Shown here piece by piece: positions 27,952 through 29,505 of a DNA stretch of 64,000 nt. A program made the position numbers and the translations under genes. Origin of the DNA: Candidatus Poribacteria bacterium (lineage in GTDB: Bacteria > Poribacteria > WGA-4E > GCA-2687025); the NCBI GenBank assembly GCA_963665845.2, contig OY762492.1, forward strand, positions 1,504,001-1,568,000. The letters run 5' to 3'. Under the pieces are notes generated by a model that saw only the letters and a program-made list of their open reading frames with translations, was not told the origin of the DNA and ran no database searches. Every line of letters starts with the position of its first letter. Position 1 is the first letter of the stretch.

Positions 27952-28072
27952 AGTATCTGTGTTCAAAGTCAATCATTTTGCGCTTTCCGTAGCGCCGAAA
28001 GTCGCCGCGGCGGACATTTTTCGGCAAGAGCCGAAGGAGCCGCCGCAGCGAGATTTCGGAAAGGTGTTTTCA

Positions 28073-29278
28073 TCAGCCTCGCATCCTGTCGCTTGACTGC
28101 GGATCGGAAGACGCCGCCGCCGGCGCTTCTCCAGGCGCCGGCAGCGCCTCCCCGTCAGCCTCGCCCAAAGACGCCGCCGCCTCCGCCGTTCTGGTCGGAG
28201 CCGCGCCCGACGCATCGGAAGAACCCGACTCTTCCAACTGCGGCGCCTCATCCGCTGTCCCGTCCGACGCATCGGAAGAACCCGACTCTTCCAAAGACGC
28301 CAAAACAGAACCCGAATACTCCGCAATCCAAGGCGTTCCGCGCTTCGCAACCACGCACGCCAGAACAACCAACTTCCGAGCCGCTCCCACAAGAGCGACC
28401 TTCGGAGGCTTTCCGCGACCGATCAAACGATCGTAAAACGCCTTCAAATCCGGATTGTAACGCGCCGCCGACAGAGCCGCCATATACAAGGTTCCCCCGA
28501 ATATAACTGCGGCCGCCGCGTATCGAACGCTTCCCAAACGACCTGCCGCTCTCCCAAGCCGCCGGAGCCAGACCAAACAGCGATACAAGCTCCTTCGGAC
28601 GCAAATCGGCAAACTCAGACAAGCAGACCGTCAACAAGATCGCGTTGATCTTGCCGACCCCCTTGATGCTCTTCATCAGATTGAACATCCGCTGCAAGCC
28701 CTCGCGCTGCCCAACCAGCTCCAACATCTGCGCTTCCAGCATCTTGATCTGCGCGTCTAAATGCTGGATATTCTCCTCCATCATGGTCTTCAGCTGCTTG
28801 TCCCGTTCGCGCAGCCGTCGATTCTTTTCGCGCGTGCGTTCTCTCACCAGCTGGGAGCGCCGCTTCATCCTGGCTTTGATCGACGCCAGAAGCGGGTCGG
28901 GCGGCGGGGTCGGTTCGGGCGACCGCTCCAGCCCGTATTCAGCGAGCAGCTTCGCGTCCAGCCTGTCGGTCTTGGCCATGTAGTTCCTTTGGAGCGGGCG
29001 TAATTGCGGAACTGGGTCGGATGGCAGCGGTAGAATGGTCTTTGCGCGGCGTGAAGTAGGTCCATCAGTTCCAGTTCGTATCCGCCGGTTGGTTCCAAGA
29101 CGACCAGTTCGGCTTTGGCTTCTTTGAGCAGCTTGATGAGTTTGGCGATGCCCGCCGCGCTGTTTTCGATGATGAACGGTTTCTCTCCGTTGATCGAGAC
29201 GTCGATTTTGTCTTTGGCGACATCGGCTCCGGCAACGATTTCGTAGTTGCGTTTCGCTCTGTTTTTCTTTATGCTCAT
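28073..29278 (-). pseudogene. IS110 DEDD recombinase with two frameshifts (~28980 and ~28495)
   Basis: GADVAKD, VLEPTGGY, AKTDRLDA (DEDD), [10 protein letters not shown] (catalytic Ser), [12 protein letters not shown] split over three ORF pieces; AAGGAGG RBS. Confidence 0.9.
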
Positions 29279-29310
29279 GTCATCCTCCTTTCGTGAGGAG
29301 TAGGGCAAGG

Positions 29311-29490
29311 GGGCTGGATCTCCCCACTTATATACTGTGCAGAGCAAAGCATCTGTTCGGAGCATCCAGCCCATTTTGCCGTTTGCGCGAGCTTCCCTAC
29401 TCCCGCTCGGCGCCGCTGCGAAGCAACGCGCCCAAGACGGTCTGGAGTCTCACCGCGCTACCCCTTAAGTATGCGCTTACTCTAGGGGCA
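29311..29490 (-). ncRNA. Predicted IS110 bridge RNA (~180 nt)
   Basis: Three hairpins; internal loops carry AGACCGUCU/GCGGGAG (target) and ACAGAUGCU/AUAUAAG (donor); begins ~6 nt after a TATGAT -10 box. Confidence 0.82.
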
Positions 29491-29495
29491 AGATC

Positions 29496-29501
29496 ATCAT
29501 A
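29496..29501 (-). promoter_or_regulatory. -10 box TATGAT of the circle-junction promoter (-35 TTGACT at 27967-27972)
   Basis: Joining the IS ends gives TTGACT-TTGAACACAGATACTTG-TATGAT (17-nt spacer). Confidence 0.8.
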
Positions 29502-29505
29502 CAAA

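Follow-up and report, generated by a model that had tools for sequence, protein, structure and literature searches.

We consider it highly probable that a stretch of 64,000 nucleotides (nt) from a Candidatus Poribacteria bacterium (contig OY762492.1, positions 1,504,001 to 1,568,000; here called the window) harbours a frameshifted IS110-group insertion sequence lodged in a hairpin repeat of the NTS/dRS3 type, whose left end likely encodes a bridge RNA resembling that of IS621, pairing both with the repeat and with the element's own joined ends. The element measures 1,554 bp including both core dinucleotides (27952-29505, minus strand), with boundaries drawn from two empty sites and from ten copies in the genome (3.98 Mb, 3 contigs). 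A preliminary description of the window had proposed an IS110 element with a bridge RNA programmed against a palindromic repeat of the host, with which the protein family, the insertion sites of 10/10 copies and the guides agree. In every tested feature the element is of the IS110-group bridge-RNA type; the unequal core of target and donor is its sole departure, and the TT found in the target is tolerated by the published enzyme. The bridge-RNA mechanism and the targeting of repeats being already known, it is a well-resolved further example and not a new system.

The junctions, in minus-strand orientation, are CCAGACCGTCA-TT-TGTATGAT on the left (29516-29496) and ACAGATA-CT-CCCGC on the right (27960-27947), the latter continuing as ACAGATA-CT-CCCGCGTAAGCGGGAAT. 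Both lie where they were first described, as do the two empty sites, each of which carries CCAGACCGTCATTCCCGC. Because both vacant sites read so, the insertion is exact at the crossover and the duplication amounts to one shared T at most. The 10-nt identity first noticed between a loop of the left end and the flank is present in both, and this 10-mer, CCAGACCGTC, occurs four times in the window (the two empty sites, the flank and the loop), where shuffles expect 0.14 occurrences and 0/100 reach four.

The ten copies comprise the window element (copy A), copy B (91% identical to A), seven copies of a C type, which are 71-79% identical to A at the ends with a middle unalignable by blastn, and one truncated copy of 446 bp. 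All ten have the same single-bond junction, with GTCA-TT before the element and ACAGATA-CT-CCCGCG(T/C)AAGCGGGAAT at its end, two of them differing at one position of the hairpin and the truncated one lacking its right tip, and their outer flanks are unrelated. Furthermore, junctions of this form also occur in a sister species (G008) at other loci, 7 exact ones for the right end and 6 for the left end, so the check proposed in the preliminary description, that other copies sit in the same repeat, is borne out by all ten copies and by these 13 junctions. The short-read assembly of G008 breaks at the element, and ends of 27-45 nt, all of B type (tip TACAT), sit at its contig tips, the left target sites beside them reading GTCGTCA, ATTGTCA, GCCGTCA (twice) and GCTGTCA (twice); a protein search of G008 for the recombinase gave no match because the element is unassembled there. 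The unique flanks of 4/5 examined G008 right-end loci map with 89-93% identity to copy-free places in the genome studied here, the fifth being unmatched, and thus the two species gained their insertions independently. Simple empty sites in this genome for the G008 insertions could not be shown, as the local repeat mosaic differs.

The palindrome used as a target is the published Ssn-related hairpin known as NTS/dRS3, with 806 oriented copies in the genome and 14 hairpins in the window. The published 28-nt motif CGTCATTCCCGCGMAVGCGGGAATCYRG is found 174 times exactly and 385 times with up to one mismatch, and the dRS3 pattern ATTCCC-N8-GGGAAT at 868 sites in the 3.98 Mb. The palindrome had first been called borne by a miniature inverted-repeat transposable element (MITE), yet only 102 of 806 hairpins lie between both MITE-like inverted ends (GTTGGGACAT is upstream in 154 and ATGTCCCAAC downstream in 221); at the window insertion only the left MITE-like end is present. 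The insertion separates the conserved CGTCATT from the stem of the hairpin. The genome also has a GIY-YIG gene of about 100 amino acids (aa), ssnA-like, which matches PF01541 with 55 bits (G000:C1:2298881-2299099). Its locus (G000:C1:2298776-2299466) has one forward NTS hairpin about 90 nt upstream of the gene and three inverted ones at 100-nt steps about 70-270 nt downstream, matching the NTS-ssnA-NTS layout of Chenal 2025 (PMC11893778), here with a putative nuclease. A second type of hairpin, CCCCCTTTTAAGGGGGG (27868-27900, minus strand), lies about 50 nt from the insertion within the same intergenic repeat mosaic.

Five recombinase genes of C type are open elsewhere in the genome (378-410 aa as called), among the intact paralogues the one at G000:C1:526107-527306. 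One of their products, P0001 (400 aa), matches PF01548 (63 bits) and PF02371 (62 bits) and scores 182 bits against NF033542, the NCBIfam model 'IS110 family RNA-guided transposase' (cut-off 140). In phmmer, alignments spanning the whole protein were obtained with the solved recombinases of IS621 and ISCro4 (PDB 8wt6, 9t56; E 1e-24 and 1e-25), and the one with 8wt6 places the catalytic residues D11, E60, D102, D105 and S241 of IS621, numbered for the DEDD and Ser sites as in Hiraizumi 2024 (PMC11208158), on their counterparts in P0001. The motifs GID.SK, FEPTG, KTD..DA and ESGKS all occur in 4/5 paralogue gene calls, the shorter call P0004 missing two of the patterns. The window gene itself, with its start at 29278, is broken, and its pieces match residues 100-265 and 237-399 of P0001. 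Its first frameshift, in an AAA run, is common to copies A and B. At the second break the assembly has five G (28494-28498) and copy B as well as a short-read contig (188 nt identical to A) have six, while alignment with an intact paralogue gives four as the in-frame count; since four are needed, the gene is broken with five or six G, and the window copy is unable to make its own recombinase. The claim of a new ortholog of an RNA-guided recombinase therefore fits the intact paralogues elsewhere but not the window copy, a pseudogene with two frameshifts. The discrepancy between short-read contigs (six G) and assembly (five) indicates in passing that homopolymer lengths in the assembly may be inexact.

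A/B-type and C-type recombinases are 40-56% identical to one another. In a protein search, the nearest matches elsewhere share 58-65% and 49% identity, and behind them comes a large group at around 40%. The one with 49% identity, P0013 from another assembly, ends in ...EHRYSRASGNPES, and reading from the right tip into the hairpin here gives the same residues (EHRYSRVSGN), which suggests, at the protein level only, the same junction in that assembly. Distant relatives with DNA context numbered one in a scan of genome contigs and one in a scan of metagenome contigs (34% and 40% identity), and among 151 genomes of the phylum two others had matches, at 30-33%. At the loci of these distant relatives (30-40% identity) the hairpin was not found, so the covariation described below rests on this genus. 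The protein carries an acidic C-terminal tail of about 80 aa rich in Ser, Ala and Pro (28076-28330, minus strand; P0001 residues about 320-400), in which the unit EESGSSDAS occurs twice in copy A; the relatives with 58-65% identity are also about 406-409 aa long, and their tails differ in sequence.

The non-coding left end had been described as folding into three parts, and this three-part fold is indeed the minimum free energy structure of the window copy, at -90 kcal/mol against -69.9 +/- 4.1 for shuffles (z -4.86, 0/200 as good). Folded separately, the left ends of A, C1 and B each give a 5' hairpin followed by two stem-loops whose internal loops are large (z -4.86, -5.10 and -4.72), the stems of the donor loop differing between the A/B type and the C type. 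In the alignment of the ten copies 95.5% of cells pair, against 40-50% with slid partners, and two-sided changes occur in 7/65 pairs, where shuffles give 2.5 +/- 1.2 (0/500 reach the observed number) and slid controls 0-3. The covariance with homologous ends that had been proposed as a check is thus seen among the copies of this genome, with the fold recovered in three sub-types. A scan of 27000-30500 against Rfam (E up to 1) returned nothing, and the predicted bridge RNA is thus outside the curated models. Next to it, a small predicted hairpin that pairs the ribosome-binding site may act as a translational brake on the recombinase gene.

The four guide strings first reported, AGACCGUCU (29435-29443), GCGGGAG (29400-29406), ACAGAUGCU (29348-29356) and AUAUAAG (29327-29333), are all present, the donor guides fitting donor positions 1-8 and 8-14 with one wobble each; the left target guide, however, is mismatched at positions 7 and 9. 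By the published rules, left guides pair with the bottom strand and right guides with the top strand, the core being included in both (Durrant 2024, PMC11208160; Hiraizumi 2024, PMC11208158). Handshake dinucleotides, arranged as in section 11 of Hiraizumi 2024 (PMC11208158), follow the right guides: UA after the target guide in 10/10 copies, and UG after the donor guide in A and B. When the 228-nt left end was shuffled by mononucleotide 300,000 times, all four guides in order with at most one wobble each never appeared; in a looser test, with wobble allowed at every position, 12/20,000 shuffles had them. Guide positions 1-6 fit perfectly at 5/10 occupied sites against 88/813 vacant hairpins (P = 0.002; the copies are non-independent, and B and C7 carry other guides). 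The strongest single item for the bridge-RNA reading is the joint change of tip and guide in sub-type B: TACAT at the tip goes with AUGUAAG as the right donor guide, whereas the C type has TGTAT with AUACAAG, two positions having changed together. The TACAT tip is found in 6/6 left junctions of G008, so the B tip belongs to a lineage that has moved.

The left junctions always read TT and the right junctions always CT, both in the ten copies where the tip is kept and in G008, the second T being common to target and donor; a product that follows the top strands would show this pattern. The IS621 layout with a CT core, as first proposed, thus stands for the layout and for the donor, while the target core is TT in all copies. 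In IS621 the core is CT with an almost invariant T in second place, and a TT core supports recombination (Hiraizumi 2024, section 8, PMC11208158). The top strands of IS621 are cut after T9, with residual mismatches suggested to be repaired, and by our own count from the positions given there the bottom-strand cuts lie four bases to the left (Hiraizumi 2024, PMC11208158). The right target guide forms a G.T pair with the target before exchange and a G-C pair with the incoming donor strand after it, and we infer that unequal cores, with wobble before and Watson-Crick pairing after exchange, would bias the reaction toward insertion.

Joining of the two ends brings together TTGACT (27972-27967), a 17-nt spacer and TATGAT (29501-29496), which scores 10/12 as a promoter in 8/9 full copies and 9/12 in B. 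When the element is integrated, the hexamer in the -35 position reaches 1-3 of 6, and a scan of 27850-29600 found no promoter-like site. A junction promoter split across the joined ends in the same arrangement is published for IS621 (Hiraizumi 2024, PMC11208158). By analogy with IS621 the element would excise as a circle, and the promoter built by end joining would transcribe the bridge RNA. On the hairpin repeat, its target loop would then read the bottom strand at ACCGTC.T and the top strand at TT-CCCGC, its donor loop would read ACAGATA-CT-TGTAT at the joined ends, and a tetramer of the DEDD/Ser recombinase would swap the top strands just after the core T. If still mobile, the window copy would depend on recombinase supplied in trans from one of the five intact paralogues.

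Several points weigh against this interpretation. At position 7 most left target guides carry U, including that of the window copy, and 809/813 vacant targets carry A, and guide position 9 (G or A) is unable to pair with the target. A bulge model, in which A7 of the target is flipped out and UU of the guide lies on the TT core, was indistinguishable from a plain mismatch, and copy B (guide A7) fits the register without a bulge. In copy B the left target guide, AGAGUCAU, fails to match the adjoining flank at 2 of positions 1-6, and the genome contains 0 exact targets for it; 5/10 occupied sites depart from the guide at positions 1-2. On covariation of guides, whose lack had been named as grounds for dropping the reading, one donor guide covaries with the element tip, and the target guide of B misfits its flank. 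The handshake of the C-type donor loop (UA or UU) fits the target at position 7 only. The covariation of the fold comes from three lineages only, the tested structure was derived from the same alignment, and copies within one genome are non-independent samples. The circle junction was not seen in the contigs of four sequencing runs, none of which spans the element, and transcription and recombination of the element are deduced by analogy.

Copy A is a mosaic. Its first 100 nt (29402-29505) comprise the tip, the 5' hairpin and most of the target loop and share 97% identity with C1/C2 and 71% with B, whereas nt 101-1200 (28300-29401) share 88-99% with B and 42-73% with C1 or C2; its bridge RNA thus consists of a C-type target loop and a B-type donor loop. 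Given this composition, copy A could be a non-autonomous element still mobilised in trans, its chimeric bridge RNA serving an intact C-type recombinase, of which the same genome holds five genes. It has C-type tips and a C-type target loop (97% to C1 over the first 100 nt), and a first frameshift shared by A and B is expected if an already broken element was copied. We nevertheless hold this to be doubtful, if conceivable: with recombinases that are 40-56% identical between the two types and donor-loop stems that differ, cross-recognition is hypothetical, and the genome has one A copy and one B copy only.

That the protein alone picks the site, the loop resembling the target because the left end captured part of a hairpin (the left flank and the 3' arm of the palindrome, in sense orientation), is highly improbable. 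The right target guide, GCGGGAG, differs little from GCGGGAA, the 3' arm in sense orientation, and the loop looks like an NTS copy in which the 5' arm and the loop have been replaced. Yet the donor loop matches the element tips, which are unrelated to the repeat, and covaries with them at two positions in B; moreover, the guides lie in internal loops of a conserved fold in the same places as in IS621, and the family is RNA-guided by experiment (Durrant 2024, PMC11208160). Within the bridge-RNA interpretation, the likeness of the target loop to an RNA copy of the left flank and 3' arm of the hairpin hints that target guides may arise by target capture. Even less credible is a spread by homologous recombination or gene conversion among the roughly 800 hairpin repeats instead of transposition: the repeats are abundant and the copies are mosaics of one another, but every copy has the identical single-bond junction on both sides with unrelated outer flanks, the insertion loci differ between two species of the genus, and the junction promoter makes sense only with a circular intermediate.

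Features of the element and its target sites in the window (positions of the 64,000-nt stretch).
Feature	Position	Strand	Basis or remark
Whole IS110-group element	27952..29505	-	Empty sites and 10 copies
Left target half CCAGACCGTCA; left target positions 1-7 are ACCGTCA	29506..29516	-	Identical to empty sites
TT core dinucleotide, left junction, inherited from target	29504..29505	-	TT in 10/10 copies and 6/6 sister-species left junctions
Right donor arm TGTAT (element tip)	29499..29503	-	Complementary to right donor guide; sub-type B has TACAT and a matching guide
-10 hexamer TATGAT of junction promoter	29496..29501	-	Scored with right-end -35; present only across joined ends
Predicted bridge RNA, 5' stem-loop	29459..29490	-	Folds and consensus
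Predicted target-binding loop (outer stem, internal loop, inner hairpin)	29385..29458	-	Folds and covariation
Left target guide ACCGUCUUG, against ACCGTCA-TT	29433..29441	-	Reads like top strand; fit at positions 1-6 and 8, misfit at 7 and 9
Right target guide GCGGGAG with handshake UA	29398..29406	-	Against (T/C)T-CCCGC, 7/7 with one G.T; UA against donor positions 6-7 (TA); invariant in 10/10 copies
Predicted donor-binding loop	29304..29380	-	Folds of sub-types
Left donor guide ACAGAUGCU	29348..29356	-	Against ACAGATA-CT, one G.T wobble
Right donor guide AUAUAAG with handshake UG	29325..29333	-	Against CT-TGTAT, one U.G wobble; UG against target positions 6-7 (CA)
Small hairpin, ribosome-binding site GGAGG paired with upstream CUCCUC	29284..29300	-	Helix 11; one pair changed on both sides; kept in all copies
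Recombinase pseudogene, split over three frames near 28988-28990 (AAA) and near 28494-28498 (G run)	28073..29278	-	DEDD and Ser motifs still readable
-35 hexamer TTGACT of junction promoter, right end	27967..27972	-	Promoter scoring
Left donor arm and core ACAGATA-CT (element right tip)	27952..27960	-	Junction reading and genomic copies
Right target half CCCGCGTAAGCGGGAAT, remainder of NTS/dRS3 hairpin	27935..27951	-	Junction reading; motif per Chenal 2025 (PMC11893778)
Vacant target site CCAGACCGTCATTCCCGC	10083..10100	+	Sequence identity
Vacant target site CCAGACCGTCATTCCCGC	57967..57984	-	Sequence identity

The element shares with IS621 and ISCro4 the same two protein domains, DEDD and Ser, an RNA composed of a 5' hairpin with target and donor loops, a left non-coding end longer than the right one (here 227 nt, 29505-29279, against 121 nt, 28072-27952), the donor ACAGATA-CT-TGTAT, and a target that is a repeated extragenic palindrome (REP). 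The layout of the IS1111 group, with the longer right end and guides downstream of the gene, is not that of the element, where the left end is longer and the guides lie upstream (folding was done on the left end). As in IS621, the left guides resemble the top strand, the right guides are its complement, and each right guide is followed by a handshake dinucleotide. The protein itself matches IS621 distantly (phmmer E 1e-24), and the IS621 protein has 326 aa (Hiraizumi 2024, PMC11208158) against 400 aa here, lacking the C-terminal tail. Further differences from IS621 are the TT core of the target beside the CT core of the donor, the left target guide unpaired at 7 and 9, right guides of 7 contiguous nt against 4 in wild-type IS621, and the target itself, the E. 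coli REP there and the NTS/dRS3 hairpin here. Of IS110 elements, 85.7% have a predicted bridge RNA, and the targeting of REPs by IS621 is likewise published (Durrant 2024, PMC11208160); excision, half-match recombination and stem-loop gating of IS110 elements have been studied since.

The closest parallel in the choice of target repeat is the IS110-type transposase of the Neisseria Nf1/MDA prophage, which lands in the same repeat family (ATTCCC-N8-GGGAAT) at CT (PMC1797815; PMC7058167). In the dRS3 sites of Nf1 type the CT is in the centre of the palindrome (PMC7058167), whereas here the crossover follows ATT at the 5' foot of the stem, and the Nf1/MDA cargo is a phage (PMC1797815; PMC7058167) in contrast to the bare insertion sequence here. 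Chenal 2025 (PMC11893778) connects NTS hairpins with the GIY-YIG single-stranded DNA nuclease SsnA, and IS110 is mentioned nowhere in that paper; in our case the hairpin is an insertion target. Multi-copy IS110 elements restricted to an intergenic REP or stem-loop repeat, as here, are also described in Pseudomonas putida, namely ISPpu9 and ISPpu10, in another host phylum and another repeat family (PMC12288879; preprint 10.64898/2026.03.19.712850). Our literature searches found neither 'bridge RNA' together with 'dRS3' nor 'IS110' together with 'Poribacteria'. It is a rather unlikely proposition, taken as a whole, that the Ssn hairpin (NTS/dRS3) would be a recurrent landing pad for RNA-guided IS110 recombinases across unrelated phyla, with the bridge RNA here evolving by swaps of whole loops.

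The element leaves the understanding of how IS110 bridge-RNA elements work unchanged; it offers a well-resolved natural example from a little-studied uncultured lineage, in which three co-resident sub-types amount to a natural guide-swap experiment. It also links two published systems, RNA-guided IS110 elements and the NTS/dRS3 hairpins of Ssn nucleases. Furthermore, the intact paralogues, with 7-nt right guides, naturally unequal cores (TT and CT) and roughly 88 vacant sites per genome that fit perfectly, are possible orthologues for bridge editing.

Two candidate joints from the sequencing data were set aside: the one termed 'skips 1553', considered as an empty allele, has 18-24 nt on its shorter side, a depth of about 3 and an extra letter and was read as another repeat copy, and the 1632-nt contig joint has unknown letters between its two sides. 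The truncated copy (G000:C1:469927-470372, plus strand) is a C-type left end of 446 nt with the whole bridge-RNA region and 73 codons. Its internal ...GCGGAAA-CT is joined directly to the hairpin CCCGCG, so that the deletion is bounded by CT on both sides, as recombinase action at a pseudo-donor site would leave it, the alternative being a 3-nt microhomology (ACT). In other families, most matches to the pattern with two mismatches were fortuitous and fell in coding repeats. One stands apart, at the start of a contig from another family of the same class (G082:C104:1-140), where TTGACA is followed by 15 nt ending in ...ACAGATACT and then by CCCGCAAAAGCGGGAATCCAG; it resembles a related element's right end lying within an NTS-like hairpin.

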